From IMG/VR virus record IMGVR_UViG_2740892234_000009, positions 1 to 13,480 of that record: a stretch of 13,480 bases of DNA; one strand, 5' to 3'. Made by a program: the position numbers and the translations under genes. This DNA comes from a virus. Its lineage: Duplodnaviria; Heunggongvirae; Uroviricota; Caudoviricetes. The notes below the pieces were generated by a model. The model searched no databases and was not told the DNA's origin. It was given only the letters and a program-made list of their open reading frames with translations. Below are positions 1 through 13,114 of this stretch, in pieces. How positions within the stretch are numbered: position 1 is the stretch's first letter; every line of letters begins with the position of its first letter.

Positions 1-1914
1 TTCAAGGTCGATCATCAGATGAATCCCCGCTCTGCTGGTGGATGTGAGCTTATGATGACCATTCACCTTAATTAAGGGATCTGTCGCCTCGCCAGTTTTA
101 TTATCGCTGGCGTGATGCTGATTGCCGCCAGGGTTCTCCTTGTGTGGATGTTCAGCGCCTTCCATTTCCTCCGGATCATTTTCCTGAACTTCAACCTGAT
201 TCTCTTCATCGAATGTTTCCTGGTATGTTGCGTCGCCCATCACCGCGCCACAATCAGGGCAGTTGCCGCCACCGCTCTGACCGCAGGCGGTGCAGACTTT
301 TTCCGGTTCCTGTTGCGCTACTGGTTCGGATTGTTTCGTTTCTGGCTCGTTTTGTAACGCATTTGGGCTGTTTTGTTCCGCTTTTTGGTCGTTCCGTTCC
401 GATTCATGCTGGTTCTGGTTCACAGAATCGCGAGTCTGGATCCCCTTGACCCATTTCGGATCATTAGGGTCGCTAATCCCCTCAACAAATTCACCACGCG
501 ATACAGCAAGTAACTTATCGGCGTCAGGCTGGCTGATATTGGCTGCCTGCATAATTTTGTTTACTTCGTCAGCGGTGACTTTTACTTGGTTAGCGGAACT
601 CACTTGCGACTGAGCATCCAGCGACTGCGCGTTCTGGCCATGTTCAGTTGTATCCGGTTCCATTGTTTCAGTTGTTGCCTGTTCACCTGCCATTGCGTCA
701 GATGGTTGTGGTTTTTCTTCTTCTGTTTCACGCTCAGTAACCACCTCGCGGTTAATTTCTTCCAGGATATCTTTTTCCGGCGTATGCCGGGCAGCTGTGA
801 GAGTTTCCTTGCTGGGGTTCTCGTGATCAGTTTCCGTCAAATAGGCGTTGATATACCCCTGAAGGCGTCCCGGGTAGTGATAAAATTCAGGGTGTGCGCT
901 TCGGATAAGTGCAAAAATAGCGGCGCGGGAATAGTCCAGAATACCCGGGGTTGCACGAAGTGCTGCGGACCATTCTTTGAACGGACTTTCTTTGTTCAGG
1001 ACTACTTCTTTTGCGCGACGATAAACGCTGCCCGGAATTTCATAAATATTAAAATCCATCGGAAGTGTGGCTGCTGCAATCTCCACATCCAGTGTGTCGA
1101 GGGTGTGTACTAAATTCGGATTGCGATCGGTTTTGTTCCCACCGCCAGCATTAGCACCGGAAGCCGTGCGGGTGATGCGTGAAACACGATTTCCTTTCAT
1201 CCACTCTTTTGTCAGCAGACCCCGATCAGTGTAGTCAGTGTCCAGGTATGCTTCGAAAAAAGCAGTTATTAGTCCCAGGTCTGAATTACCAGGATTAGGG
1301 AAAACTTTGTCAGTGTCACGAACCAGTTTGTGGAGGTCGCGAATCTCCAGCGAGTCGAGCAGACTGGTTTTATGCGAAATAGCCAGGGCAGTAACAGCCG
1401 GTAGTTCTTCAGCCCGTGCAATGTGTAATGCCTGGAGTTCGTCGCGTGAAACGTGCGTTACTGATTTTTCGCTGCCGTGTTGAGCAAGCCAACGAATGGG
1501 CAGTTCCTGACCGGAGACAGGCAGAAGCATGCTCTCCTCAATCTCAGTCATGTCTTCGCCGTTGATGTTGGTATTGTCAGTGCTGGCTGGTTTGTCCTGA
1601 ACAGAGGGGGAAGGGCCGATAAATGTCATTGTGATGCCATCTTTCCCGCCTTTTTCATAGCGGTTGCAGAATTCAGTATCAAACACGCCTTCTGGCGGAA
1701 GGTCGTCAACAACGGGCAAATTGACGCGGACGGGTTTTTTAAAGTCGTCTTCATCATAATCGTTGTCATCCATTGCGGTAATGCAGCGGGAGATTGCAAC
1801 AGATAATTTTTTTGCTGTAGTCCAGTAAAAACCACCTTTAATTCCTAGGCGTTTTCTTACTTTGTCATTTTTTGCTTCGCAATATAGTGCAAATTCTTCT
1901 TTATCAGTGCTCAT
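1..1914 (-). CDS. recE: RecE (exonuclease VIII) homolog, N-terminal 638 codons; 3' part of the gene lies beyond the window start
   Basis: Minus-strand frame open from ATG at 1914 (GAGG 10 nt upstream) to position 1 with no stop. Translation contains motifs I recognise from E. coli Rac RecE ([105 protein letters not shown]). Frame spot-checked around 1498-1530. The overlapping plus-strand ORFs in the track are spurious. Confidence 0.8.
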
Positions 1915-2007
1915 TATTGGTAAACCTCATCACAGATTTAAGGGTGAACAAATCTCTGCCATTGCTGACATATAAGAATGAAACTGGATATTTATTACGG
2001 TGCTGTT

Positions 2008-2199
2008 TTAAAATCCTGCCGGGATTTCGTTATTATCCTGGTGAATAACTTTATCGACCGGATAACAGTTGCCTGGAATTTTCTGTTCGGTTGCTGCTGC
2101 CATACATTCCTGCATTGTTCTGTGAACACTGACTGCAATATCAACTGGCTCTCCGGAAACAAGAAAAACCGTCAGAATAAGTGCAAATACTGGATTCAT
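2008..2199 (-). CDS. ydfD: YdfD-like small protein (63 aa) with N-terminal hydrophobic segment
   Basis: ATG at 2199 overlaps the dicB stop (ATGA); product MNPVFALILTVFLVSGEPVDIAVSVHRTMQECMAAATEQKIPGNCYPVDKVIHQDNNEIPAGF. Same size and position (immediately 3' of dicB) as ydfD in the K-12 Qin dicB operon. Assignment is from memory and synteny. Confidence 0.55.
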   Translation of the reverse strand: MNPVFALILTVFLVSGEPVDIAVSVHRTMQECMAAATEQKIPGNCYPVDKVIHQDNNEIPAGF

Positions 2200-2384
2200 T
2201 GTGCACATCCTTTTGGCATCAGACGTAAACGGGCCAGCATTGAAACAATGCATACTTTATTTAATAACTCCCGTTCGTGTTTTCTTTTGTTAATGGCATC
2301 TTCAGTAAATACAGGATTACTGATAGTGACACCAATTTCAAAACAACCTTCAGACGTATTAACGTTTGGTAATAACGTTTCCAT
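2196..2384 (-). CDS. dicB: DicB-like cell division inhibitor (62 aa)
   Basis: Internal ATG at 2384 of the 2196..2489 ORF, GAGG 8 nt upstream; product METLLPNVNTSEGCFEIGVTISNPVFTEDAINKRKHERELLNKVCIVSMLARLRLMPKGCAQ is near-identical to my recollection of E. coli DicB. Lies directly downstream of DicF, as in Qin. Confidence 0.8.
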   Translation of the reverse strand: METLLPNVNTSEGCFEIGVTISNPVFTEDAINKRKHERELLNKVCIVSMLARLRLMPKGCAQ

Positions 2385-2497
2385 TATCGCGTCCTCAACA
2401 ATGAATTTTGTGATGCGGTGCCTGGTGCCTCCAGGTGACGTTAACCAGTTAACAATTAACGCCGGATACAGAGAATCCACCCATAACACTGTTTTTG

Positions 2498-2569
2498 GTT
2501 TTAACTGTTCCGCGTGCGCTCAGCCGCATTCACCGCATCACAAAATTCACTTTAAAAAGGGCGGCAGAG
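2498..2569. repeat. Direct repeat copy 1 (72 bp) ending at the N-gap; corresponds to the 3' flank and terminal stem of DicF
   Basis: 2498-2569 equals 2610-2681 with one mismatch (c2521 vs t2633). The two copies flank the N run at 2570-2579, which suggests overlapping contig ends or a second DicF locus. Confidence 0.7.
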
Positions 2570-2579
2570 NNNNNNNNNN
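2570..2579. other. Assembly gap (10 N)
   Basis: Run of n in the sequence, flanked by a 72-bp direct repeat. Confidence 0.95.
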
Positions 2580-2665
2580 CATTCCCGTTACGCCCGTAAA
2601 AGACCGCTTGTTTTAACTGTTCCGCGTGCGCTTAGCCGCATTCACCGCATCACAAAATTCACTTT

Positions 2666-2723
2666 AAAAAGGGCGGCAGAGCAGTCACGGAGTAAAACTG
2701 ATACCGCCAAACGTCACCAGAAA
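2666..2723 (-). ncRNA. dicF: DicF small regulatory RNA (Hfq-dependent sRNA that inhibits ftsZ translation), with U-tail
   Basis: Reverse complement of 2671-2723 reads UUUCUGGUGACGUUUGGCGGUAUCAGUUUUACUCCGUGACUGCUCUGCCGCCC, followed by a U-run (A-run 2666-2670 on plus). This matches the DicF sequence as I remember it and sits upstream of dicB in the same orientation. Confidence 0.8.
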
Positions 2724-2904
2724 ATTGATAACAGAGGGCGTTGCAGCGGGGTTGTCACTTAAGCGTATGGTCAACCTGACAACCCGGTGTCCTCAACGGG
2801 GAAGGAATAACCCCGCCATACTTACCGCTGCGCCATTTCGCGGAGTGCCACAACCGGAAGCGCACGATCGAATTAAATTTAACGACGACCTATACAGAGA
2901 GACT

Positions 2905-3022
2905 AACTTCGCCGGGCGCTTTCGTGTTATGCCCTGACTTTTCAGGGATATATCCTTTTCAGTAAACTGTCAGTGCCGGATTCTTATCCGTGTCCGGCGC
3001 ACGCACTCTACCTCACCTGTGA
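2905..3022. promoter_or_regulatory. Conserved ~118-bp element, copy A: palindrome/hairpin CCCTGA-cttt-TCAGGG (2932-2947), hairpin GCCGGA-N12-TCCGGC (2975-2998), candidate sigma70 promoter on plus strand (-35 TTTTCA 2939-2944, 18-bp spacer, -10 TAAACT 2963-2968)
   Basis: Aligns over its whole length with 5040-5156 (about 85-90% identity by eye). The first palindrome carries a compensatory change relative to copy B. Lies between the Y stop codon (3028) and the DicF precursor region. Confidence 0.4.
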
Positions 3023-3027
3023 ATAAA

Positions 3028-3402
3028 TTAATGATTAATTGATATTTTGTTGTTTGATTCAACTTTCCCATCGGATGTGTGATGCTTTAAATCACAGGAA
3101 TTAATACTGCTCGCTGTAAAATGATTTTCAAGGGGAGCTATTCGAATCCCTTTCTTTTTCATTAACAAGCCAAATCCTTTATTAATGATGTCCATTAATT
3201 CCAGGAAGTATTTTTCATGTAAATCCTGGTTATCAGAGAGCTGCTTCTCTTCGTACAGACCGATAAAGGCACGACGCACGTTACCGGATATAGTATCGAT
3301 GGTTTCTTTTTCTACGGTACTCAGGTCAAGAGTCGCCAGTTGAGAGCGAACCACATTCGATGCCATTTCCTGGAATGGTACTGGTAAATCTTTAAATTCC
3401 AT
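3028..3402 (-). CDS. Hypothetical protein Y (124 aa): N-terminal ~50 aa conserved with the 5402..5809 product, unrelated AT-rich C-terminal part
   Basis: ATG at 3402 (MEFKDLPVPFQEMASNVVRSQLATLDLSTVEKETID...), GAGG 6 nt upstream, 11 nt after the stop of the upstream gene. The 5' ~150 bp are conserved at DNA level with 5650-5809; the rest is unrelated. The track ORF starts 4 codons earlier at 3414. Confidence 0.6.
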   Translation of the reverse strand: MEFKDLPVPFQEMASNVVRSQLATLDLSTVEKETIDTISGNVRRAFIGLYEEKQLSDNQDLHEKYFLELMDIINKGFGLLMKKKGIRIAPLENHFTASSINSCDLKHHTSDGKVESNNKISINH

Positions 3403-3413
3403 CGTCAACCTCA

Positions 3414-3566
3414 TCAGTCAGTGTTTCTGGTTAACCAGCGACGCGCGCCAGCTTCAGTTTTAAACGTTTTGCTTCTGGTATACGTCATCGCGGTAAACGT
3501 GCCGTCCTGGTTGGGAAACACGCCGTACACCAGAGATTCGTTGTTGCCAAGATCGATAGTATCCAT
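3414..3566 (-). CDS. Hypothetical small protein X (50 aa), first gene of the repressor-distal leftward operon
   Basis: ATG at 3566 (MDTIDLGNNESLVYGVFPNQDGTFTAMTYTRSKTFKTEAGARRWLTRNTD) with GAGG 5 nt upstream, directly preceded by the conserved leader element. The track ORF extends to 3653, but that part overlaps the conserved element and has no RBS. Confidence 0.45.
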   Translation of the reverse strand: MDTIDLGNNESLVYGVFPNQDGTFTAMTYTRSKTFKTEAGARRWLTRNTD

Positions 3567-3578
3567 GTTGACCTCATT

Positions 3579-3605
3579 TCCCCTTAACGCTGGGGTAGCG
3601 GAACT
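3579..3605 (-). promoter_or_regulatory. Conserved 27-nt leader element (minus sense AGTTCCGCTACCCCAGCGTTAAGGGGAA), copy 1
   Basis: Near-identical to 6495-6521; in both places it sits 13-16 nt upstream of the start codon of the first gene downstream of a repressor gene. Confidence 0.35.
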
Positions 3606-3747
3606 AAAAACCTGCTGCGCTGTTATACAAAGTGTTCCCGCCGTCATGTTCATACGCCTCGGGCTGGCTACTTACCCCCTGACCACTGCTTGGTAACTCG
3701 AAGTATTGCCCGGCGTTCTGTGGGGCGGGGTGGGTTGGTATGTTGTT

Positions 3748-3776
3748 AAGGTAACAAGGGTTACCTTTCGAGTCAA
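3748..3776 (-). promoter_or_regulatory. Candidate leftward promoter with operator: -35 TTGACT (3771-3776), 17-bp spacer, -10 TACCTT (3748-3753), overlapping palindrome GGTAAC-aagg-GTTACC (3750-3765)
   Basis: The palindrome half-sites are identical to the two palindromes in the cI-cro intergenic region (4514-4527, 4562-4575). Lies between the cI terminator and gene X. Confidence 0.4.
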
Positions 3777-3808
3777 TGCAATGTTGCAAAAGGTACATTT
3801 GAGGGCAT

Positions 3809-3832
3809 GAAAAACCCGCAATGAATGCGGGT
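3809..3832 (-). terminator. Rho-independent terminator 6 nt downstream of the cI-like stop
   Basis: Minus sense: stem ACCCGCA / TGCGGGT with 5-nt loop followed by UUUUU (plus 3814-3832 with A-run 3810-3814). Confidence 0.6.
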
Positions 3833-3838
3833 TCTGAC

Positions 3839-4555
3839 TCAGTCTAAGTATTGATGTATTTGTGAAACTTTACCTTTAATGGTGTAACCACCATTCAGTT
3901 CGATGGGTTTGTAAAGCGGATTCAGTGACAACAGATAGATGTTTGGTCCGTCAATCGCAACTTTTTTTAGTGTTACGTTTGGCGTTCCTTCCAATTGGAT
4001 TAAGATTATTTTTCCCACCAGTTCTCTAATGTTACTTGAGCATGGTGTGATCAGCACGGTAGATCCGTCGGGGATGGTTGGGAGGCCGTTAGAGTTTGTC
4101 ATCGCATCTCCCTCAACATGCAATAAAAAAGAGTTTTCAGCGGTTTTTGTCATGACATCAACCCAATTCTTAATACCAGGAATCTCGGTTACTGGACAAC
4201 TCATATCCCAATAACCAGCCTGTTCCCACGTTAAAACGGGCAACCGGGCGATGTTGTCACTAATGTAAGGGTACTGATTCAGACGCAGATCATCGGCTTT
4301 ATCGTGACCGTCCTTTCCATAAAGAATCCATTCAGGAGATTTGGAAAGCAATTTTGACAGTAGATACAAATTCTCACCGTCAGGTTTTGAAGAGCCATTT
4401 TCCCATTTTGTTACGGATACACGAGATATGCCGATTGCTTTCGCAACCTGCTGTTGGGTTAATCCAACGTCTTTTCGACGATTCCGAATACGTTCGCTGA
4501 TAGTGTTTTTCATGTAACCAATGTTACTACCAAGTGATGTTGCTATGGTTGACAT
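3839..4555 (-). CDS. CI-type phage repressor (HTH_XRE N-terminal domain plus LexA-like S24 peptidase C-terminal domain)
   Basis: 238-aa ORF. N-terminal ISERIRNRRKDVGLTQQQVAKAIGISRVSVTKWENG is a classic XRE helix-turn-helix; C-terminal part has S24/LexA-like features (HVEGDAM, GKIILIQLEG, TLKKV) as in lambda CI / P22 C2. The true start is probably the internal ATG at 4513 (MKNTISERIR...), which leaves a 91-bp divergent intergenic region holding both operator palindromes. Confidence 0.85.
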   Translation of the reverse strand: MSTIATSLGSNIGYMKNTISERIRNRRKDVGLTQQQVAKAIGISRVSVTKWENGSSKPDGENLYLLSKLLSKSPEWILYGKDGHDKADDLRLNQYPYISDNIARLPVLTWEQAGYWDMSCPVTEIPGIKNWVDVMTKTAENSFLLHVEGDAMTNSNGLPTIPDGSTVLITPCSSNIRELVGKIILIQLEGTPNVTLKKVAIDGPNIYLLSLNPLYKPIELNGGYTIKGKVSQIHQYLD

Positions 4556-4575
4556 TGTTATGTAACTATTGTTAC
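4514..4575. promoter_or_regulatory. Immunity operator region: palindromes GTAAC-caat-GTTAC (4514-4527) and GTAAC-tatt-GTTAC (4562-4575); candidate pR -35 TTGACA (4549-4554), -10 TACCCT (4573-4578)
   Basis: Two 14-bp inverted repeats with identical half-sites in the divergent cI/cro intergenic region; the same half-site palindrome recurs at 3750-3765. Confidence 0.5.
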
Positions 4576-4604
4576 CCTTCTACTCGAAATAACAGGAGAG
4601 TTTT

Positions 4605-4820
4605 ATGTTCAAAGATGATGTTCTGCGCTATTTCAAAAAAAAGCGACTAGTAGCTGAGGCTCTTGGAATTTCACATGTGGCTGTTGTGCGGTGGAAAGCA
4701 GTTATTCCCAAACTTCGCGCAATGGAACTGGATGAAATTACTAACGGTGAATTGAAATACAACCCAGAACTTTACAAGAAGCAGGATAGCACCTCAAACG
4801 AAGGAAAGAATGATTCATGA
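4605..4820 (+). CDS. Cro-like small HTH protein of the YdaS/DicC family (71 aa)
   Basis: Divergent from the repressor, AGGAG RBS at 4591-4595. Product is clearly homologous to the 7171..7398 product (FGSKTKLA.., ..VP.GRAM.L.E...GEL.Y.P..Y). Overlaps the next gene (ATGA at 4817-4820). Confidence 0.75.
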   Translation: MFKDDVLRYFKKKRLVAEALGISHVAVVRWKAVIPKLRAMELDEITNGELKYNPELYKKQDSTSNEGKNDS

Positions 4821-5029
4821 AAATCAAGCATGAACACATCCGCATGGCGATGAATGTCTGGGCGCATCCGGACGGCGAAAAAGTACCGGCTGCGAAAATT
4901 ACCAAAGCGTATTTCGAGCTGGGAATGACGTTCCCGGAACTGTATGACGACAGCCATCCGGAAGCCCTAGCCCGTAATACCCAGAAAATTTTCCGCTGGG
5001 TAGAGAAAGACACCCCTGATGCAGTTGAA
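4817..5029 (+). CDS. YdaT-like protein, N-terminal part only (truncated by the N-gap at 5030)
   Basis: Starts MKIKHEHIRMAMNVWAHPDGEK; segment NTQKIFRWVEKDTPD resembles NRVKIFERWKAIDTRD of the 7382..7933 product; same position after the cro-like gene. The track ORF reads through the Ns into unrelated sequence, which is an artefact. Confidence 0.5.
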
Positions 5030-5039
5030 NNNNNNNNNN
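5030..5039. other. Assembly gap (10 N)
   Basis: Run of n; interrupts the YdaT-like ORF and immediately precedes conserved element copy B. Confidence 0.95.
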
Positions 5040-5156
5040 AACCTCGCCGTGCGCTTTCGCGTTATGCTCTGACTTTTCAGAGAAATATCCTTTCAGTAAA
5101 CTGTCAGTGCCGGATGTTCACCCGTGTCCGGCGCACGCACTCCACTTCACCCGTGG
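5040..5156. promoter_or_regulatory. Conserved ~117-bp element, copy B: palindrome/hairpin CTCTGA-cttt-TCAGAG (5067-5082), hairpin GCCGGA-N12-TCCGGC (5109-5132), candidate promoter (-35 TTTTCA 5074-5079, 17-bp spacer, -10 TAAACT 5097-5102)
   Basis: Homologous to 2905-3022. The first palindrome differs from copy A by a symmetric pair of substitutions that preserves dyad symmetry/base pairing. Followed by a strong RBS and the ORF at 5191. Confidence 0.4.
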
Positions 5157-5190
5157 AGAACTCCTTAATTACCAACCCTCAGGAGGGTGA

Positions 5191-5424
5191 ATGTTAAAAT
5201 CAACTCTTATTGCTAAATGCCTTTATCAAAATCGCATGGTAAGCAGCATTTCAATAGGCGAGTCTGCAGTTAAAAGTATTTTCGAAGAGTACTTTCCCGG
5301 GCATGATTTTAATAAATGGAATACCAAATTACCGCCAGCAGTTTCAACGCGTATTCTGAAAGCAACCGAAAGAGCAAGTACAATTCGCGTTAACTATTTC
5401 ATTAAAGATTTGTGGGATCTTTGA
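5191..5424 (+). CDS. Hypothetical 77-aa protein, convergent with and overlapping the 3' end of the Y' gene by 23 bp
   Basis: AGGAGGG RBS at 5181-5187, ATG 5191, stop 5422-5424; AT-rich coding region; no homolog recognised. Confidence 0.4.
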   Translation: MLKSTLIAKCLYQNRMVSSISIGESAVKSIFEEYFPGHDFNKWNTKLPPAVSTRILKATERASTIRVNYFIKDLWDL

Positions 5425-5809
5425 TATCCACAGAGCCTAAAGTATGTGCATATGGATGTGCTATTATGCGCCCTCGCAGATTTGCATCATTTTCTAAATT
5501 CACTGAACGAAACAGGGCATCAACAAGGCTCTGTACAATGCAAAGGCAATCGAAGACTGTCGCCGTTTCTGTTTTGATTGATGAAAGAACATGGCCATTC
5601 ACGCAAACAGAAATTACCCGTTTATTAACATCGCTTTCCTGCTTTTGATTATCAGAACCATATAGCCCAGAAAAAGCATTGCGCACATTACGAACCATAT
5701 TATCGATGGTTTCTTTTTCTGCGGTACTAAGGTCAAGAGTAGCCAGTTGTGAACGAACTATATTCGATGCCATTTCCTGTAATGGCGTTGGTAAATCTTT
5801 AAATTCCAT
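5402..5809 (-). CDS. Hypothetical protein Y' (135 aa), paralog of Y with a different C-terminal cassette
   Basis: ATG at 5809 (MEFKDLPTPLQEMASNIVRSQLATLDLSTAEKETID...), GAGG RBS upstream. N-terminal ~50 aa about 85% identical to Y; the rest is unrelated and AT-rich. Confidence 0.6.
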   Translation of the reverse strand: MEFKDLPTPLQEMASNIVRSQLATLDLSTAEKETIDNMVRNVRNAFSGLYGSDNQKQESDVNKRVISVCVNGHVLSSIKTETATVFDCLCIVQSLVDALFRSVNLENDANLRGRIIAHPYAHTLGSVDIKDPTNL

Positions 5810-5831
5810 TATTAGCCTCGTTGGTTAGCTA

Positions 5832-6050
5832 TTAACGTGGGTATGTAATCATTCTGGCAATGCTTAATGCCGCTGCTTTTTCCAGATTGGTGATATCCTG
5901 CTCCAGAGCGGACAGATTTTCAGCCTGCTTAGCCCTGGCTTCATTGGCCCATTTCAGGTCCTGCACCGCCTTAATTTTCTGGTGCATCCACTCATAAAGT
6001 TCATCATCGGTATAGTCTGGCGCGATGATGACGGGGTCTCGTTTCTGCAT
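5832..6050 (-). CDS. Hypothetical 72-aa protein
   Basis: ATG at 6050 with AGGAG 5 nt upstream; product MQKRDPVIIAPDYTDDELYEWMHQKIKAVQDLKWANEARAKQAENLSALEQDITNLEKAAALSIARMITYPR has a helical/coiled-coil character. Confidence 0.55.
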   Translation of the reverse strand: MQKRDPVIIAPDYTDDELYEWMHQKIKAVQDLKWANEARAKQAENLSALEQDITNLEKAAALSIARMITYPR

Positions 6051-6122
6051 GTCGGCTCCTTGTGGTTAGCGTTGCCTGCTTTTTAACCACGTCAGGCGAG
6101 GTGGTATCCTCTGAGGGGTCTG

Positions 6123-6479
6123 TTACTCGAGAGGAAATTGGTTATGAATACAATCAAGTTTTCTTGCCCAGAATGTGGTGGCTAAGTCTTTGACACATCC
6201 TTTAAGCCGCAGGGCTCTGACAGTTTCGCGGGAGCCATCTGCAAAAATTGTGGTCACCTTGTAACTGAAGATGAGTCCTCGCAGTTCGATGACGAAATCG
6301 TTGACAATATCTTCGGTGCACTCACCAGAGACTTTCTGAAGTAAAGGCGCATACCGCTTAGTTACCGCTCTGATAACTCTTACCTGTCCGGCAATGGCGC
6401 TGATATCAATATAAAGCGCCATCGCTGTTTCTTTGCTGATCCCTGGACGCCTTCCATTCTGATGTTTGACTTCGCCCAC
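6123..6479 (-). CDS. Hypothetical 118-aa protein (GTG start), first gene downstream of the DicA-like repressor; conflicts with an antisense disrupted zinc-ribbon ORF
   Basis: GTG at 6479 preceded by AGAGGA and by the conserved 27-nt leader element. No homolog recognised. The C-terminal two thirds overlap a plus-strand zinc-ribbon reading frame (6144-6344), so the true coding strand of 6144-6344 is uncertain. Confidence 0.4.
   Translation of the reverse strand: MGEVKHQNGRRPGISKETAMALYIDISAIAGQVRVIRAVTKRYAPLLQKVSGECTEDIVNDFVIELRGLIFSYKVTTIFADGSRETVRALRLKGCVKDLATTFWARKLDCIHNQFPLE
6144..6344 (+). pseudogene. Zinc-ribbon small protein reading frame interrupted by an in-frame TAA at codon 14 (6183-6185)
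   Basis: GAGAGG RBS at 6129-6134, ATG 6144; conceptual product MNTIKFSCPECGG*VFDTSFKPQGSDSFAGAICKNCGHLVTEDESSQFDDEIVDNIFGALTRDFLK has two CxxC pairs and an acidic C-terminus typical of small zinc-ribbon proteins. Confidence 0.35.
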
Positions 6480-6494
6480 TGAGAAATCCTCTGC

Positions 6495-6521
6495 TTCCCC
6501 TTAACGCCGGGTAGCGGAACT
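6495..6521 (-). promoter_or_regulatory. Conserved 27-nt leader element, copy 2 (minus sense AGTTCCGCTACCCGGCGTTAAGGGGAA)
   Basis: Matches 3579-3605 except for one indel/substitution; 16 nt upstream of GTG 6479. Confidence 0.35.
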
Positions 6522-6686
6522 GTTTGCTGAGAACACCGTGCGGTGTCTTGATGAGTAGAATTTAGAATAGCCTAAGAGTTATGGTCAAGCTTTTTGTGTA
6601 GAAAAACCTAAGCTTCTTGATGTAAAAAACACAAGTATTTGAAAGTTTGTGCTTTTTATTACAGAGAGTTGCGAAAAAAAGGGGGG

Positions 6687-7094
6687 TTATTTATTTGCGC
6701 TTCTTTTGCGAGCTTTGAGTAGTTCTTCAAAAAGTTTGTTGAAATTCTCAACTCGAGCACGCATCTCTGACAACAGAGCCTTTTGCTCTGACTCAGGCAG
6801 TGCGTCGAACAGTTGAAGCAACTCTTTTTGATCTTCTGTCAGATTGACTGGCTGATTATCTGGGATCGGTTCGCCTGGTTGCTTATCTTCATCTCCAAAA
6901 AGAAGCCAAGTCGGCGAGCACTGAAGCGCCTGGCTCAGTGCGAATAATCTCTTCCCCGCTGGCTGTGTTTCATCTCTTTCCCATTGAGAAATTGTTACGT
7001 GAGCCACTTTGACCAGCTTACCTAATGCGGCCTGAGACAGTTTTAATTTTTTTCGCCTGTATAAGAGGCGAGCACCGAAGGTTTCGTTTTTCAT
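6687..7094 (-). CDS. dicA: DicA-like (P22 C2-type) HTH_XRE repressor, 135 aa
   Basis: Product contains LSQAALGKLVKVAHVTISQWERDETQPAGKRLFALSQALQCSPTWLLFGDEDKQP and ...LFDALPESEQ...EMRARVENFNKLFEELLKARKR, which closely match my recollection of E. coli DicA (also 135 aa). Divergent from a DicC-like gene. Confidence 0.8.
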   Translation of the reverse strand: MKNETFGARLLYRRKKLKLSQAALGKLVKVAHVTISQWERDETQPAGKRLFALSQALQCSPTWLLFGDEDKQPGEPIPDNQPVNLTEDQKELLQLFDALPESEQKALLSEMRARVENFNKLFEELLKARKRSANK

Positions 7095-7170
7095 ATTAGG
7101 TAATTCTAATTTTTCTTGACTTAGGTTTCTCTACGATCTAGTTTCCTTAGGAAAATCTAAGGGGTTCGAT
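7095..7170. promoter_or_regulatory. Divergent promoter/operator region: candidate rightward promoter -35 TTGACT (7116-7121), -10 TAGTTT (7139-7144); palindrome CCTTAG-gaaaat-CTAAGG (7145-7162); additional TTAGG/CTAA repeats (7096-7109, 7121-7126)
   Basis: Inverted repeats built on a CTTAGG/CCTAAG half-site in the 76-bp intergenic region between the divergent repressor and cro-like genes; AAGGGG RBS 7158-7163 before ATG 7171. Confidence 0.45.
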
Positions 7171-7398
7171 ATGTTGAAAATTGATGCTATAGAGTTTTTT
7201 GGCAGCAAAACAAAGCTTGCCAATGTCGCAGGAGTTAGGCTGGCAAGCGTTGCTGCATGGGGAGAACTGGTTCCTGAAGGTCGCGCGATGCGCCTGCAAG
7301 AGGCATCCGGCGGGGAACTTCAGTACGACCCCAAAGTTTATGACGAATATCGTAAGGCAAAGCGGGCGGGGCGGTTGAACAATGAAAATCACCACTGA
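7171..7398 (+). CDS. dicC: DicC/YdaS-family Cro-like protein (75 aa)
   Basis: Divergent from the DicA-like repressor; product MLKIDAIEFFGSKTKLANVAGVRLASVAAWGELVPEGRAMRLQEASGGELQYDPKVYDEYRKAKRAGRLNNENHH; homologous to the 4605..4820 product. Symbol assigned by position and partial recollection. Confidence 0.7.
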   Translation: MLKIDAIEFFGSKTKLANVAGVRLASVAAWGELVPEGRAMRLQEASGGELQYDPKVYDEYRKAKRAGRLNNENHH

Positions 7399-7933
7399 AC
7401 AGGTTTGTGAGGCTCTGGATACCTGGGTATGCCGACCAGGAATGACACAGGAGCAGGCGACGATATTAATCACGGAAGCATTCTGGGCTCTGAAAGAACG
7501 CCCGAACATCGATGTTCAACGCGTCACGTTTAATGATGGCGAGGTTGATCAACGGGCGCTGGGCGTTAACCGGGTGAAGATATTCGAACGCTGGAAAGCT
7601 ATCGACACCAGAGATAAGCGTGACAAATTCACGGCGCTGATTCCGGCAATTATGGAGGCTATCCGGATCAGCGATTTCAGATTGTATTGTGAAATTACTG
7701 ACGGAAAAAGCATTACGTACATGATCGCCGGGTTAAACAAAGAATATGGCGATGTGGTGGAGTCCGGGCTGCTTTTTGCGGATCCAGTTGTTGTGGAACG
7801 TGAGACTGACGAGCTTATAGAAAAAGCTATTGCTTTCAAGCACGCGTATCGTCAGCAATACCAATATTACTTTGCAGATAAACAAATGTCTGCCAGGGGT
7901 TCGTATGAGTATCGATGCACTACGATGGGCTAA
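7382..7933 (+). CDS. YdaT-like protein (183 aa)
   Basis: Overlaps the cro-like gene end by 17 nt; shares the MKI start and the KIFxRW..DT.D segment with the 4817 ORF. Family assignment is from memory. Confidence 0.6.
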   Translation: MKITTEQVCEALDTWVCRPGMTQEQATILITEAFWALKERPNIDVQRVTFNDGEVDQRALGVNRVKIFERWKAIDTRDKRDKFTALIPAIMEAIRISDFRLYCEITDGKSITYMIAGLNKEYGDVVESGLLFADPVVVERETDELIEKAIAFKHAYRQQYQYYFADKQMSARGSYEYRCTTMG

Positions 7934-8955
7934 AAAGGTGAAAACCGGCAGTTCATCCAGTAAGTCAGTATTGACCTGGCTTGCTGATATGTGCGGTGCC
8001 GATTTGTGTGCATACCCGTCTGTATCTGCACTGGCAGAAGTAACGGAACTGAACAAAAAGACTGTGCAGGACAGCTTACGACACCTGATGGAGATTGGGT
8101 TAATTGTTGATACCGGTGAGAGAAAAGGCAGAACAAAGCAAATTGTGGTGTACCGACTTATCGGTGTAGAAGAAAGTGTTGCCGAGCCTGAATACACCCA
8201 AAAACGGGAGTCTTTAAAGGTGGGTAAAATTGGTGCTGTTAATAAAAACAGTACCGAAAATGGTTATGTTTCAGCACAAAACAGACCCAAAAACAGAACT
8301 CTTAGCTGCATGGAAAATAACCAAAGACACCCAAATTTTCCATCAAAGACACCCAAAAACGGATCACGGAACCCAAAGGAACCCAAAGGAACCCAAAGAT
8401 CTAAACCCCACACATAACGCACGCGAGAGTGCTCCGACCAGTGAGCAGGAAGTTTTGTCGTTACAGGCAGCCCCCCCTGTATTCCTGTATGGCCTGAGCG
8501 AACCCATCGGAAAATTCCCGATGAGCGATAGCTGGTATCCGTCACGGGATTTTCGACGACGGGCTGCGTTGTGGGGGATGGCTTTGCCGGAGACAGAATT
8601 TACACCTGCTGAACTTGCCGCCTTCCGGGACTACTGGGCAGCGGAGGGGAAAGTGTTTACGCAGATTCAGTGGGAGCAGAAATTCGCCCGTCACGTAAAT
8701 CACGTCAGGGCGCAGGTTAAACCAGTCAGCAAAGGGGTAAACCATGCAGCAGCACCAGGTGGCACCGCATCACGGGCAGTTCAGGAAATTCGGGCAGCAC
8801 GTGAGCAGTGGGAACGTGAAAACGGATTTATCAGCGACGGAAACGGCCTGGAAGCTGTGGGAACTCATGGGGGTGGTTTATTCGAACCGCTGGACCCAGA
8901 AGAACGGGGCCGCACCTTCGAAGCTCTGGATTGCACAGATTGGCGCGATGACTGA
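7905..8955 (+). CDS. Replication initiator (O-like): N-terminal HTH/winged-helix domain (7905-8417, frame A) and DnaT-like C-terminal domain (frame B, ends 8955), separated by an apparent +1 frameshift within 8230-8417
   Basis: ATG 7905 with AGGGG RBS. N-terminal part MSIDALRWAKKVKTG...VLTWLADMCGADLCAYPSVSALAEVTELNKKTVQDSLRHLMEIGLIVDTGERKGRTKQIVVYRL. C-terminal part GKFPMSDSWYPSRDFRRRAALWGMALPETEFTPAELAAFRDYWAAEGKVFTQIQWEQKFARH aligns with E. coli DnaT ([26 protein letters not shown]...[20 protein letters not shown]). Frame A stops at 8415-8417; frame B is open from about 8230. The gene may be a pseudogene or carry an assembly indel. Confidence 0.6.
8281..8400. repeat. Iteron-like array inside the replication gene: ACCCAAA-containing repeats, including CAAAGACACCCAAA x2 (8322-8335, 8344-8357) and a perfect 10-bp tandem GGAACCCAAA x3 (8368-8397)
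   Basis: Repeats read directly from the sequence; the position (inside the initiator gene between its two domains) is analogous to ori-lambda within gene O. Confidence 0.55.
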
Positions 8956-9409
8956 GCAGCAAATCCGGCAGGTCTGCCGCCAGTGCATGGACTGCTGCCG
9001 GGCGGGTGAAACATGGCCTCCGGACCTGGCTGAGTTTGTGGCACTGATTTCGAAAAGCGGAGCCAATCCATTCGGTCTGACGGTGGATGCTGTGATGGAG
9101 GAGTACTGCCGCTGGCGCAATGAGTCCTGGCGATACGACGGAAGTGATAAGTACCCGTGGTCTCAGCCTGTGCTGTATCACATTTGCCTCGAGATGCGTT
9201 CAAAGGGGATTGAGCGCCAGATGACCGAAGGGGAATTAAAACGGCTTGCAGAACGGCAACTGACGAAATGGGCAAAGCATGTTAGTAACGGCCTGAGCGT
9301 TCCGCCAGTCCGGCGACAACTGGCGGCCCCCAAACGCCCGTCGGGGCCAACGCCAATTGAGTTGCTGAAACAGGAATATGAACGCCGGAAAGCGGCTGGT
9401 TTTGTTTGA
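8948..9409 (+). CDS. Lambda P-like replication protein (helicase loader family), 153 aa
   Basis: ATG 8948 overlaps the upstream stop (ATGACTGA). Product aligns with the C-terminal part of lambda P: PDLAEFVALI ~ PGQFVAWC, VDAVMEEYCRWRNE ~ VDMVYEYCRKRG, KYPWSQPVLYHICLEMRSKGIERQMTEGELKRLAERQL ~ SYPWKSNAHYWLVTNLYQNMRANALTDAELRRKAADEL. The track ORF starts earlier at 8744, inside the upstream gene. Confidence 0.7.
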   Translation: MTEQQIRQVCRQCMDCCRAGETWPPDLAEFVALISKSGANPFGLTVDAVMEEYCRWRNESWRYDGSDKYPWSQPVLYHICLEMRSKGIERQMTEGELKRLAERQLTKWAKHVSNGLSVPPVRRQLAAPKRPSGPTPIELLKQEYERRKAAGFV

Positions 9410-9442
9410 GTTGAGAAGTGATTTTTTACCGGGAGGAAATTT

Positions 9443-10177
9443 ATGGAGACTGTTTTTGACGCACTGAAAGCGATGGGAAAAGCCACGTCGGTAGAGCTGG
9501 CTGCGCGCCTTGATATCAGTCGTGAAGAAGTACTGAACGAGCTGTGGGAACTGAAAAAGGCTGGCTTCGTTGATAAAAGCGTATACACCTGGCGTGTGGC
9601 TGATAACAACGTTCAGCAGGAACAGCCAGCGCCAGAAGAAACCACCACGGCAACAGAAGCGAAAATCTCAGAGTGCGATTTAACCGCGACGATTGAACAA
9701 CGCGGACCACAAACGGCGGATGAACTGGCTACGCTGTTCGGTACAACATCCCGCAAAGTTGCTTCAACGCTGGCAATGGCAATCAGCAAAGGTCGTCTGA
9801 TTCGCGTAAACCAGAACGGTAAAATTCGTTACTGCATACCAGGTGATAATTTACCAGCAGAGCCGAAAGTTGAATCGGTAGCGGAAACCGATGGTAAAGC
9901 CTTTCCTCAGCCAGCCGGTGTTGCGTTACCGGTACAGAAAGATGCAACACAGGAAGATATTAAAACAGAAACTGTGGCGGACATTGTGCAGTCGCTGCCA
10001 TCGTTTACTGCAACGCGAGAAGATGATTTGATTTTGCCATCGCTGCATATGGCAAATCGCGAACTGCGTAGGGCGAAGAATCATGTCCAGAAGTGGGAGC
10101 GAGTCTGCGCCGCGCTGCGGGAGCTGAACAAGCACCGGGATATGGTTGCCGGGATTTGTCGGAAGTCCGGGCAATGA
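9443..10177 (+). CDS. Hypothetical 244-aa protein with two winged-helix-like segments
   Basis: GGAGG RBS at 9432-9436, ATG 9443. wHTH-like segments [29 protein letters not shown] and [32 protein letters not shown]; acidic/T-rich linker. No specific family recognised. Confidence 0.55.
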
Positions 10178-10338
10178 GCGGATGGTGCAGGCCTGAAATC
10201 ATGATACTAACAATGAAGGTAAAATGCATCGGCAGTCTGATTGGTCGTAGTGAGGCGGCGGTCAGGATGAAAGCCCGGGTTAAGGGAATAAGCCTGATTC
10301 TGCGGGGTGATTTTCACCAGTCAACAAAATATCCGTAG
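10174..10338 (+). CDS. Hypothetical small ORF (54 aa), weak support
   Basis: ATG 10174 overlapping the upstream stop (ATGA); no clear RBS; alternative in-frame ATGs at 10201 and 10213. Confidence 0.2.
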
Positions 10339-10618
10339 CGCGATAACGGTCAAAAATTATGGCGCTGACACTTTTGTGCCACTGGAGATGACTGTACCTA
10401 AGTTCAGGGGAGAAGAACACGTCCGGTGGGATGGTCGGGCCAGATTTAAAGGGCAGGTCATGGCTCCAGCCTGTACGCTGGCAATGGAGGCTGCCTGGCG
10501 GGAAATTGATATGGGAACCACGCCACTCAGGGATTTACTGCCGGTCCAGAGAATAAATTCCTGTTACGGTTACACCACTGTGATCTTGCAAGTGCAGGAA
10601 AGTAGGTCTACACGGTAA
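10307..10618 (+). CDS. Hypothetical ORF (103 aa, GTG start), weak support; possibly a gene remnant
   Basis: Open frame overlapping the previous ORF in another frame; no convincing RBS; no homolog recognised. Confidence 0.2.
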   Translation: MIFTSQQNIRSAITVKNYGADTFVPLEMTVPKFRGEEHVRWDGRARFKGQVMAPACTLAMEAAWREIDMGTTPLRDLLPVQRINSCYGYTTVILQVQESRSTR

Positions 10619-10846
10619 CGCGAGTGCGTGTAACTTTTGATGTCATTCCCGTAGAAACACCGGACAAATTTTCGCTGACAGGTCATGCAGAAGGTATAAA
10701 TCTGCAGATTATGGACAATTACGGATATCCGGCAAGAGCCGGAAAAAGCATGCCGCCTCTAATTCTCAGTGGAAGATGGACTTGATTATACTCATTGCAT
10801 TGTCAGAAATAGTTATCCATTAAAGGCTGGCTATTCCAAACAGGAT

Positions 10847-10870
10847 GTTGATTACAAAAATGTAATCAAC
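10847..10870. promoter_or_regulatory. Perfect 24-bp palindrome GTTGATTACA-aaaa-TGTAATCAAC in the AT-rich region upstream of the binding-protein gene
   Basis: Read directly; lies about 30 bp upstream of a TATAAT hexamer (10899-10904) and about 170 bp upstream of ATG 11037. Confidence 0.3.
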
Positions 10871-11036
10871 ATGTAAGGTTTATACTCTTCAATATGCGTA
10901 TAATTTTCCTTATTTTGTTGACTTTAAATAACAAGCTATGCACGAGGTAAAGTCGGATAAGTTTATCTGGATGTAATATATATTATTTGTAGTGTTTATA
11001 ACTTTATTTCATGATAACCAATAAAAGGAGTTTTTT

Positions 11037-11795
11037 ATGAGGAACATAATGGCAGGTTTTTTAATATTCCTGTCTTCTGCTGCTTATGCTGATATCAATC
11101 TGTATGGTCCTGGTGGCCCGCATACAGCCTTGCTTGATGCAGCCAAACTTTATGCCGAAAAAACAGGTATTATAGTGAACGTTCATTACGGCCCACAGAA
11201 CAAATGGAATGAAGATGCCAAAAAAAATGCAGATATCTTGTTTGGCGCATCAGAACAATCTGCTCTGGCTATCATTCGGGACCATAAAGACAGCTTCAGT
11301 GAAAAAGATATTCAGCCTCTTTATCTGCGAAAAAGTATTTTACTGGTAAAGAAAGGTAATCCTAAAAATATCCGGAGTATTGACGACCTGACCAGACCTG
11401 GGATTGGCGTAATTGTTAATGATGGTGGTGGTACCAGTAATACATCAGGCACTGGCGTCTGGGAAGATATTGCCGGACGTAAAGGGAATATAGAAACTGT
11501 CGCCGCAATCCGAAAAAATATTATTTTATATGCGCCCAATAGCGGAACTGCACGTAAGGCTCTTGAGAATCAGCCTGGAGCAGATGTCTGGATAACCTGG
11601 GCTGACTGGGCAGCCAGTAATCCAGAAATTGGTGATGTCGTGGAAATAGCGCCAGACTACGTGATATGGCGTGATATGAACATTACAGTACGTCAGGATG
11701 CAAATGATGAAACCCGTCGATTTGCAGAATGGCTACAAACCGATGAAGCGGCGCCTGCATTCAAAAAATATGGCTGGACCAGGAAAGGCACTTGA
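11037..11795 (+). CDS. Periplasmic substrate-binding protein of the ModA (molybdate/tungstate-binding) family, with signal peptide; no cognate permease/ATPase in the window
   Basis: GGAG RBS 11025-11028. N-terminal signal peptide MRNIMAGFLIFLSSAAYA. C-terminus FAEWLQTDEAAPAFKKYGW resembles the ModA C-terminus (AFYDYLKGPQAAEIFKRYGF); overall type-2 periplasmic binding protein pattern. Sits in a low-GC island (10620-11036). Confidence 0.75.
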   Translation: MRNIMAGFLIFLSSAAYADINLYGPGGPHTALLDAAKLYAEKTGIIVNVHYGPQNKWNEDAKKNADILFGASEQSALAIIRDHKDSFSEKDIQPLYLRKSILLVKKGNPKNIRSIDDLTRPGIGVIVNDGGGTSNTSGTGVWEDIAGRKGNIETVAAIRKNIILYAPNSGTARKALENQPGADVWITWADWAASNPEIGDVVEIAPDYVIWRDMNITVRQDANDETRRFAEWLQTDEAAPAFKKYGWTRKGT

Positions 11796-11797
11796 CA

Positions 11798-11827
11798 TCC
11801 TCGTCCTTCAGGACGTGGATTCTTTTT
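11798..11827 (+). terminator. Rho-independent terminator after the binding-protein gene
   Basis: Stem TCCTCGTCC / GGACGTGGA (one mismatch), loop TTCA, followed by TTCTTTTT; begins 3 nt after the stop. Confidence 0.5.
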
Positions 11828-11914
11828 CCGGATGCCGCGCCAGCGGCATGTAGGGGCAGCTCACAAAACGGAAAAAATTGTACGCTAAGCCTCGCCAGGT
11901 GAACTGAATTCATT

Positions 11915-11938
11915 CCGATATGGGAATTCCCATATCGG
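11915..11938. repeat. Perfect 24-bp palindrome CCGATATGGGAATTCCCATATCGG
   Basis: Read directly; centred on a GAATTC site; a second GAATTC lies at 11906-11911. No flanking T-run, so it is not a terminator. Confidence 0.6.
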
Positions 11939-12023
11939 GCGAAAACGGTTTGCTGTAACGGCAGAGTTAAGTAGGATTGCTGCGGGTGCTTGAGGCTATC
12001 TGCCTCGGGCATGAACACCAACG

Positions 12024-12033
12024 NNNNNNNNNN
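12024..12033. other. Assembly gap (10 N) upstream of the hok locus
   Basis: Run of n. Confidence 0.95.
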
Positions 12034-12131
12034 TAAAAGCCCCACCCGACTATAAATCGAAGTGAGGCCCCTATATGCTCGTCACATATAGATTGCCTCT
12101 TACGGACCGAAAGGTCAAGGAGAAGCAGGCT

Positions 12132-12287
12132 ATGAAGCAGCAAAAGGCGATGTTAATCGCCCTGATCGTCATCTGTTTAACCGTCATAGTGACGGCACTG
12201 GTAACGAGGAAAGACCTCTGCGAGGTACGAATCCGAACCGGCCAGACGGAGGTCGCTGTCTTCACAGCTTACGAACCTGAGGAGTAA
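12132..12287 (+). CDS. hokD: Hok/Gef-family membrane toxin (type I toxin), 51 aa
   Basis: Product MKQQKAMLIALIVICLTVIVTALVTRKDLCEVRIRTGQTEVAVFTAYEPEE is a canonical Hok/Gef peptide (hydrophobic helix, conserved C..E..R..G..EVAAF-type tail). It matches my recollection of HokD (RelF) best, but the paralog assignment is less certain than the family. RBS AAGGAG 12118-12123. Confidence 0.75.
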   Translation: MKQQKAMLIALIVICLTVIVTALVTRKDLCEVRIRTGQTEVAVFTAYEPEE

Positions 12288-12355
12288 GAGACCAGGCGGG
12301 GGAGAAATCCCTCGCCACCTCTGATGTGTCAGGCATCCTCAACGCACCCGCACTT

Positions 12356-12382
12356 AACCCGCTTCGGCGGGTTTTTGTTTTT
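12356..12382 (+). terminator. Rho-independent terminator at the 3' end of the hok transcript
   Basis: Stem ACCCGC / GCGGGT with TTCG loop followed by TTTTTGTTTTT. Confidence 0.6.
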
Positions 12383-12507
12383 ATTTTCAACGCGTTTGAA
12401 GTTCCGGACGGCGCCGGAATAGAATCAAAAATACTTAAGTAGCGCGCAGGGAGAAGAGGGATGGACCCCGAACAGGGGAGTGCTATTTATCTGGAAGGAT
12501 TCTGTTG

Positions 12508-12765
12508 ATGAGAATCGAAGAATTACGTGAAATTTTTAGTGAAGATGGCCTCTATACTGTGCGCGTTGAGAAGGGCGCTATTGTCAGCCACTGCCGTATT
12601 AAATGTTTACAGTCTCAACAAAGGAAGAGTGGAGCTGCGTTAATTCATTTTGTGGATGGGCTTGTGACGGATGGTTTTATTTTGCGTGCAAATGAATTTG
12701 TCACATCGTTGCCGTCTCTGAAAGAAGCTGGGATTAAGGCTGGTTTTTCTGCTTTTGAAGATTAG
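12508..12765 (+). CDS. Hypothetical 85-aa phage protein
   Basis: ATG 12508 with GGAAGGA 9 nt upstream (the track ORF starts at TTG 12505); product MRIEELREIFSEDGLYTVRVEKGAIVSHCRIKCLQ.... Occupies the position of rem next to hokD in Qin, but the sequence is not recognised. Confidence 0.5.
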   Translation: MRIEELREIFSEDGLYTVRVEKGAIVSHCRIKCLQSQQRKSGAALIHFVDGLVTDGFILRANEFVTSLPSLKEAGIKAGFSAFED

Positions 12766-12834
12766 TGAATTCATCTACAATTCAGCGCAGGGCTGAACCC
12801 CTGTTGAGTAACACTGTGCCACCGGAGAAAGCCG

Positions 12835-13113
12835 ATGGCGCAAAATTCCAGACTACACAATTCTGATAATTCAGCCGTCTTTGCCAGCAGGCACGGGCGG
12901 CGTTCTCATGCATTCAAATCTGACTGGTTCCGGCACGCCCCATGCACTGAAGAACAGGCCGAATGGCTGATTCAGAACTACCGCAGACGTGGGTATGAGT
13001 TTAGGAAAGCCCTCAGCCTCGATTATCGTCACTGGATAATCTACGTCAGGCTGCCGTACTCCGAGCGCCCACCGCGTCCGTCCCGCACATTCCAGCAACG
13101 CATCTGGAGGTAA
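12835..13113 (+). CDS. Hypothetical 92-aa basic protein
   Basis: GGAG RBS 12824-12827, ATG 12835; Arg-rich product; no homolog recognised. Confidence 0.4.
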   Translation: MAQNSRLHNSDNSAVFASRHGRRSHAFKSDWFRHAPCTEEQAEWLIQNYRRRGYEFRKALSLDYRHWIIYVRLPYSERPPRPSRTFQQRIWR

Positions 13114-13114
13114 C

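Follow-up and report, generated by a model that had tools for sequence, protein, structure and literature searches.

A probable promoter and folded 5′ leader of an exchangeable accessory-gene cassette, reversed in the early operon of lambdoid prophages upstream of DicF

The element upstream of DicF and its two copies

The stretch of viral DNA analyzed here (the window; 13,480 nucleotides, positions 1 to 13,480 of IMG/VR record IMGVR_UViG_2740892234_000009) holds two copies of an element, copy A (2905-3022) and copy B (5040-5156), in the early-left, PL-type operon of lambdoid prophages. In annotated complete genomes, the minus-strand order around both copies is repressor, DUF1391/YdfA-like ORF, small ORFs, element, DicF, dicB, ydfD, exonuclease and xis/int. 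The two copies belong to two different lambdoid prophages with unlike repressor and cro genes. Between the last small ORF and DicF/dicB, the minus strand has a long untranslated stretch, which corresponds to the ydfC-dicF spacer of K-12; both copies lie in it, and the element is located 183-300 nt upstream of DicF in the operon transcript. In the Qin prophage of K-12, it occupies NC_000913.3 1649083-1649199, between ydfC and dicF, where nothing is annotated. The dicBF locus is among the oldest-studied small RNA loci. Comparison of ~95 distinct sequences revealed that the whole spacer, from the upstream ORF to past DicF, is conserved except for a variable island of ~30 nt.

The DicF gene itself varies among these prophages. 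The variant in the copy-B prophage (O157:H7 strain TR01, minus strand, positions 3770-3825 of locus L002) shares the 5′ seed UUUCUGGUGACGUUUGGCGG but not the terminator stem-loop and scores below the Rfam threshold for DicF; the DicF-like RNA of phiSTEC1589-Stx1c (positions 2700-2745 of locus L225) has yet another stem.

An earlier note, made from the sequence of the window, had claimed that the two copies align from end to end. They do, with 13 substitutions and 1 single-base indel in 118 columns (~88% identity), and both palindromes that the note described are present in copies A and B. The second of them, a GCCGGA-N12-TCCGGC hairpin that had been called identical, indeed has the same arms in both copies, but the N12 loops differ at 4 positions. 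The hairpin pattern (28 nt) is expected by chance 0.07 times in the window; the similarity of the two copies and the palindromes are far above chance.

Of 5,426 complete E. coli genomes, 4,442 contain the 900 bp around copy A, at 10,265 places in all and at up to 9 in a single genome, which explains the assembly breaks at this spot. The suggestion that a multi-copy sequence coincides here with an assembly break was thus correct: copy B starts right after one of the three scaffold gaps of 10 N each (2570-2579, 5030-5039 and 12024-12033). Because the gap directly precedes it, the left end of copy B at position 5040 is the edge of a scaffold gap and not a biological boundary. In O157:H7 strain TR01, the identical copy-B sequence runs on leftwards for 414 nt, with 90% identity to the copy-A region, into a DicF-like block/RNA and dicB. 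On the right, the A/B homology ends (3021/5155) inside a further hairpin, H2, which is lost from copy A. The element is composite. Positions 2905-2931 and 5040-5066 belong to a conserved DicF-side block and are common to loci (referred to as type II) without the rest of the element; only 2932-3021 and 5067-5190 form the distinct module, the proposed promoter and leader. The features of both copies are collected in Table 1.

Table 1. Features of the element and its surroundings (positions in the window; promoter elements and start sites are putative)
Feature	Position	Strand	Basis or remark
Copy A, end of DicF-side block (AACTTCGCCGGGCGCTTTCGTGTTATG)	2905-2931		present in type II loci; outside the promoter/leader module
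Copy A, palindrome 1, CCCTGA CTTT TCAGGG, overlaps the −35-like hexamer	2932-2947		sequence
Copy A, −35-like TTTTCA, followed by an 18-nt spacer	2939-2944	+	read from the sequence
Copy A, −10-like TAAACT	2963-2968	+	conserved across sampled loci
Copy A, hairpin H1, GCCGGA-N12-TCCGGC, probable start G2975	2975-2998	+	sequence, comparative
Copy A, cut-short leader: GCACGCA, then H2 5′ arm and loop (CTCTAC CTCACCT GTG)	2999-3021	+	alignment with copy B
Scaffold gap, 10 N, making the apparent left end of copy B	5030-5039		continuation in O157:H7 TR01
Copy B, end of DicF-side block	5040-5066		alignment
Copy B, palindrome 1, CTCTGA CTTT TCAGAG, with −35-like TTTTCA at 5074-5079	5067-5082		sequence
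Copy B, −10-like TAAACT after a 17-nt spacer	5097-5102	+	sequence, comparative
Copy B, hairpin H1, probable start G5109	5109-5132	+	sequence, comparative
Copy B, hairpin H2, CTCCAC TTCACCC GTGGAG	5140-5158	+	at least 7 different, compensating stems here
Copy B, helix H3: anti-SD CUCCU (5161-5165) with SD AGGAG (5181-5185)	5161-5185	+	covarying flank pair
Copy B, cargo ORF, 77 aa, phrog_10348 (unknown function)	5191-5424	+	PGAP in O157:H7 = WP_000920491.1
DicF sRNA gene	2671-2722	−	Rfam RF00039, 76.7 bits, E = 7.6e-16

Several other observations concern the window as such. A 72-nt stretch covering post-DicF sequence and the DicF terminator is doubled (2498-2569 and 2610-2681, 99% identity) on either side of the gap at 2570-2579, and looks like overlapping contig ends joined by the scaffolder. 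Two ORFs that cross gaps, 1978-2616 and 4817-5197, are chimeric. The gap at 12024-12033 breaks the sok antitoxin RNA of a hok/sok-type locus (11984-12134, plus strand; 66.5 bits in Rfam). Finally, three direct repeats of ~24 nt (AATACACCCAAAAACGGGAGTCTT-like), 89 and 66 nt apart, are present at 8191-8369 in the replication-gene region and may be origin iterons.

The promoter-like pattern and the ORFs behind it

The earlier note had read the plus strand of the element as a −35 and a −10 hexamer, with the GCCGGA hairpin as a 5′-leader stem that leads in copy B to an RBS and the ORF at 5191, and copy A as an orphan antisense promoter. This reading, copy A included, fits the comparative data well. 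The −10-like hexamers of the two copies have the A at position 2 and the T at position 6 that are expected of σ70 promoters, and the −35-like hexamer (4/6 match) lies 18 nt (copy A) or 17 nt (copy B) upstream, within the 16-18 nt that such promoters call for. With 8/12 matches overall, the candidate is absent from the results of a consensus promoter scan that required at least 9/12.

In a sample of loci anchored outside of the element, the hexamer at −12 to −7 was TAAACT in 55 of 59 loci, the others having TAAGCT (3) or CAAACT (1), and TTTTCA was located 17 or 18 nt upstream of the −10 hexamer in 32 of 34 unique variants. The sample contained 12 spacer variants and 7 discriminator variants. 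In one variant of the element, spacer and discriminator are replaced and both hexamers are kept. We also scanned for GCCGGA-N12-TCCGGCGCAC with the usual upstream sequence excluded. The hairpin (H1), with GCAC directly after it, was found behind at least six unrelated upstream sequences, each with TAnnnT exactly 6 nt before the first G. The −10 hexamers in these contexts were TAAACT, TAAGCT, TAACAT (several with TGn upstream), TAAAAT and TATGGT, and the discriminators differed (gtcagt, ggtgct, ggaatt, tgggtt, tgtggt and ggtgtt); the contexts that break the TAnnnT rule, with GTTAAA and TTTAAA, are cargo-less or decayed. The distance between the −10 hexamer and the hairpin is thus constant, and TAnnnT at a fixed 6 nt in unrelated contexts would mark the hairpin as a transcript 5′ end. 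Such a pattern is that of a promoter whose transcript would begin with the hairpin, presumably at G2975 in copy A and G5109 in copy B. Shinhara 2011 lists no sRNA at this position.

Sepvirinae Stx phages also have H1 with TAAGCT 6 nt upstream, in surroundings other than those of DicF. A 73-aa cargo follows it in phi367 (positions 2500-2560 of locus L227), and it is an orphan in the ea22 region of the Stx2a phage P13374 of O104:H4 (positions 1500-1545 of locus L330).

Further downstream, the plus strand has a strong, conserved RBS and an ATG ~100-105 nt after TTTCAGTAAACT, and then unrelated ORFs. As can be seen from 128 hairpin instances, 54 of which have cargo behind them and 74 of which, at one site, do not, the gene is present or absent among collinear phages in the manner expected of a moron. 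The 54 cargo ORFs (57-101 aa) fall into 13 families without BLAST similarity to each other, and homology between loci stops at the cargo start codon; cargo is swapped behind the leader. Ten representative cargo proteins were compared with PHROG, and most fall into separate families of unknown function, with phrog_8894 shared by two and no match for two. The two phrog_8894 proteins (families c8 and c17; 94 and 101 aa) are also marginally similar in Pfam to GhoS, an endoribonuclease antitoxin (PF11080, E = 2.8e-4).

Copy B is a complete unit, with its 77-aa cargo antisense to the early-left operon and overlapping by its 3′ end the convergent ORF 5402-5809. In copy A and in K-12 Qin, the leader is cut inside H2, and the H2 3′ arm, anti-SD, SD and cargo are all missing; in the window, the stop codon of the convergent ORF 3028-3414 lies 7 nt past the end of copy-A homology. 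The GC content is 0.34-0.38 in the cargo and variable region (0.38 over 5200-5500) versus about 0.50-0.52 in the conserved blocks, a composition unlike the flanks that is likewise expected of a moron. The two convergent ORFs (minus strand) have their N-terminal ~63 aa in common (DNA repeat 3254-3421/5661-5828, 79% identity). Their C-terminal halves, AT-rich with a GC of 0.34-0.38, are unrelated (phrog_6937 versus phrog_1363), and the hypervariable zone therefore comprises the cargo gene and the 3′ half of the convergent ORF.

The cargo resembles phage morons in being a small AT-rich gene, patchy among collinear phages, set against the lytic operon and provided with its own putative promoter; orientation against the lytic operon is typical of prophage accessory loci (PMC7067206). 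It differs from them in that a single conserved promoter and leader serve at least 13 unrelated genes, always at one and the same site, with homology ending at the start codon. Moreover, no terminator was found on the plus strand after 5424, the nearest being a weak one at 5855-5872, and expression in the lysogen is here a supposition.

The comparison, which covered roughly 300 related loci, speaks for the plus-strand reading. Among 160 loci sampled via an anchor in the DicF-side block, its exact 17-mer is present in 118 and ~25 carry a different, type II sequence at this place; homology between the two types resumes at CA(T/C)AAC(A/G)CGAAAGCGCACGG. A BLAST search against phage genomes retrieved the DicF-side block on its own, without the module, from Stx2c phages, cdtI, Ayreon and P1/P7. 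In phiSTEC1589-Stx1c and PhiR5_2, the element stands ahead of kil and the DicF-like hairpin is divergent, while phi367 has retained only H1 and what comes after. The module with cargo is thus found independently of DicF in these last three phages; orphan remnants are seen in K-12 Qin, copy A and Stx phages such as P13374. In a scan of genome contigs with the 17-mer, almost all matches were due to chance, and real ones were confined to Escherichia coli and E. albertii.

The type II sequence (for example, in loci L181-L224) occupies the same site as 2932-3021 and reads …GGTGGT…ACCACCTCGCCTGACGTGGTTAAAAGCAGGCACACAAC in the operon sense. It also precedes other antisense ORFs that have an RBS of their own, including one for a small membrane protein.

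Helices of the leader

Three helices, H1, H2 and H3, are common to 41 distinct leaders. The stem of H2 is CTCCAC/GTGGAG in copy B and CCCGAC/GTCGGG, CCCAAC/GTTGGG, CCCTAC/GTAGGG, CCAAT/ATTGG, ACACG/CGTGT or GCCACA/TGTGG elsewhere. In H3, the anti-SD (CUCCU, CUCCAU or CUCCAC) is matched by AGGAG, AUGGAG or GUGGAG on the SD side, and a flanking pair covaries, being UA in 12 and AU in 8 sequences. H2 and H3 are thus helices with compensatory changes, as would be expected of a structured 5′UTR in general.

We quantified the covariation in an unfitted MAFFT alignment of 21 leaders (A3). The three-helix structure pairs 96% of cells, compared to at most 47% when the partner is slid, and the covariation score is 0.166 versus 0.060 in shuffles, none of 500 of which reached 0.166. 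Double changes in H2 and H3 involve 5 pairs and 22 cells, although some of these counts reflect few events, since the leaders are closely related. At the H2 pair 36-48, CG, AU, GC and UA are all seen, and a stem of at least 6 bp is present in 17 of 25 observed H2 regions compared to 4.6% of shuffled ones. The U-G combinations at pair 7-18 (21 of 21 leaders) and at 38-46 pair only in plus-strand RNA, and the SD/anti-SD logic likewise makes sense only on this strand. The arms of H1, which were partly fixed by the search pattern, show no compensatory variation.

Folding of single sequences reproduced H1 and H2, and H3 in some classes, with z from −2.1 to −4.1; the remnant of copy A folded no better than shuffles (z = −0.94). 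The SD has a predicted pairing probability of 0.74, no higher than the 0.79 of composition-matched shuffles, so that it is the covariation that would argue for translational damping by H3.

The leader, a series of hairpins ending near the start codon in an anti-SD:SD helix, is reminiscent of SD-sequestering 5′UTRs such as the ROSE-type RNA thermometers. It differs from them in the lack of a sequence or covariance-model match and of a known link to temperature, and in an SD occlusion that is within compositional expectation. Similarly, leaders of the ompA type are stabilized by a 5′-terminal stem-loop, and here, too, a hairpin is predicted at nucleotide +1; the sequences are unrelated and the likeness is one of inferred position. 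A hairpin at nucleotide +1 is known to hinder 5′-end-dependent decay.

The H2 loop of one class of leaders (CCACACG; for example, L012, L025 and L037) occurs in both orientations, CTGTCA and TGACAG, between identical arms. Such a flip bears the mark of inversion through the hairpin, or of template switching, in DNA.

Alternative readings and the proposed cassette

The first palindrome lies upstream of the putative start and would for this reason be absent from plus-strand RNA; its symmetry, if relevant, would act in DNA, as an operator, or in operon-sense RNA. The symmetric C/G to T/A change that distinguishes the two copies had been put forward as proof of selection on a structure. This argument fails, since CTC/GAG represents a single lineage event and only 59 of 130 loci have perfect palindromes. 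The arm haplotypes are GTCTGA/TCAGGG (the commonest, K-12 type, in which 4/6 positions pair; 52 loci), CCCTGA/TCAGGG (51), GTCTGA/TCATGG (13), CTCTGA/TCAGAG (8), CACTGA/TCAGGG (3), GTCTGA/TCAGAG (2) and CCCTGA/TCAGGA (1). A separate role for the palindrome is possible but unproven. We consider it unlikely that it is a dyad operator overlapping the −35 hexamer, through which a regulator controls the promoter, a proposal that is compatible with the promoter/leader reading. A symmetry located upstream of the start cannot serve the plus-strand mRNA, it is kept in the CTC/GAG variant, and perfect dyads are commoner with cargo (38/53) than without (21/77). However, shared ancestry confounds this enrichment, as K-12-type loci prevail among those without cargo, 71 of the 130 copies are imperfect with one symmetric double change only, and the invariant core of the palindrome, CTGACTTTTCAG, contains the −35-like hexamer, which alone explains it. 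A cI/Cro operator was rejected: the palindrome bears no likeness to the operators in the immunity region of either prophage in the window.

The earlier note had also entertained a processing signal on the minus strand. In this form, the element would act in the ydfC 3′UTR/DicF precursor, its hairpins serving as processing, stability or folding determinants for DicF/dicB expression. Its place is always in the early-left transcript ahead of DicF or kil, conservation extends over the entire spacer of ~340 nt even in cargo-less loci such as K-12, and RNAalifold predicts that its 3′ part (AAGCGCACGG) pairs with CCGTGCGCTT across the variable island. In copy A, this stem of the operon-sense RNA joins 2905-2931 to CCGTGCGCTT near 2845-2860; it is predicted without covariation. 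Yet this long stem has no compensatory change and was rejected, module 2932-3021 and the DicF block each occur without the other, and the module is found with cargo beside plus-strand ORFs in phages without DicF, while the wobble pairs and the SD/anti-SD covariation fit the plus strand only. The genomic position is the same as that of the dicBF precursor of K-12 Qin, but the features described for it (an RNase E site, a terminator and an RNase III site) include none in this stretch, and the conserved logic of the element is on the opposite strand. Nor does the element match RF00039 or match or overlap the RNase E and RNase III sites flanking DicF. DicF is processed by RNase E at its 5′ end and by RNase III 19 nt past its 3′ end, i.e., at or just past DicF and not 180-300 nt upstream (PMC9438474, PMC5069750). 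Taken together, an action in the minus-strand RNA is quite improbable as the explanation of the element, though the DicF-side block may have a role there; being kept in many cargo-less loci, K-12 included, the element could have another function on the operon strand. It is highly improbable that the element has no function of its own and is a conserved linker at a mosaic boundary, maintained by frequent homologous recombination among co-resident lambdoid prophages, with incidental palindromes. Its location precisely at a module junction, one side of which varies in sequence, its up to 9 copies per genome and the inverted loop of one hairpin class, a case of palindrome dynamics at the DNA level, would agree with a linker, but a linker predicts neither the multiple compensating H2 stems and covarying anti-SD flank nor a fixed-distance TAnnnT across unrelated contexts and a homology that stops right at the start codon of the cargo.

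At ~2845-2925 (minus strand), AAGCGC(A/C)CGG pairs with (C/T)CGTGCGCTT ~50 nt downstream and encloses the ~30-nt island. The pairing is conserved, shows no compensatory changes and may be a feature of the DicF precursor.

Other identities were considered and rejected. Lambda nut and HK022 put, the antitermination elements of the early-left operon, likewise contain hairpins and precede a terminator on the PL transcript (here, that of DicF), but no boxA (CGCTCTTA-like, at most 1 mismatch) is present in or near either copy, the stem-loop geometry is unlike boxB, and the element lies three genes from PL and is conserved on the other strand. An intrinsic terminator was dismissed, since no T-run comes after the hairpins on the plus or the minus strand and no terminator was called. 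The plus-strand ORF 2725-2937 and the ORFs from the ATG of the H1 loop are not conserved: the variable island has indels, and this ATG is missing in the TTCTTATCC loop class. Nor does the element belong to a known RNA family, the Rfam scan of the window at gathering thresholds having found only DicF and sok, and a permissive scan (E ≤ 10) of 5040-5260 only noise (E > 3).

We conclude that the element is probably the promoter and folded 5′ leader of a swappable accessory-gene cassette, reversed in the lambdoid early operon upstream of DicF. The cassette, a moron, would have been inserted in reverse between the last small early ORF and DicF/dicB. A modest promoter of the σ70 type (TTTTCA, 17-18 nt, TAAACT) would direct plus-strand transcription from the first G of GCCGGA. 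The mRNA would begin with H1 as a 5′-terminal stem-loop, plausibly a stabilizer, and continue with H2 and then H3, whose anti-SD (CUCCU or CUCCAU) would pair with the SD just before the start codon and may dampen translation. The ORF behind the leader would be exchangeable, with at least 13 unrelated small proteins of 57-101 aa in this place. In these terms, copy B (5067-5424) would be a whole cassette with a 77-aa cargo, and copy A (2932-3021), like K-12 Qin, a deletion remnant with promoter and H1 and with neither SD nor gene; if active, the only product of copy A would be an antisense RNA that runs into the convergent ORF 3028-3414 from its 3′ end.

No description of the element was found in the searchable literature, the reach of which does not extend to key older papers. 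More speculatively, H1, H2 and the anti-SD might define a family of leader RNAs, so far undescribed, that controls expression from a hypervariable gene slot active in lysogens. This slot, a cassette-like hotspot of lambdoid prophages, may hold new defence, anti-defence or host-modulating proteins; antisense transcription, that from orphan copies such as K-12 Qin and copy A included, would then dampen leaky read-through into the toxic dicF-dicB. We regard this extended proposal as tentative and put it below even odds by a good distance.

In practical terms, the element accounts for assembly breaks at this spot. As at least 13 unrelated small ORFs stand in a fixed slot behind one conserved leader, a simple sequence handle is available for harvesting uncharacterised accessory genes of prophages. 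If the proposed reading is true, a convergent promoter and leader in the dicBF untranslated region, even in K-12, would explain part of the strong noncoding conservation at dicBF and would bear on the silencing of DicF and DicB.
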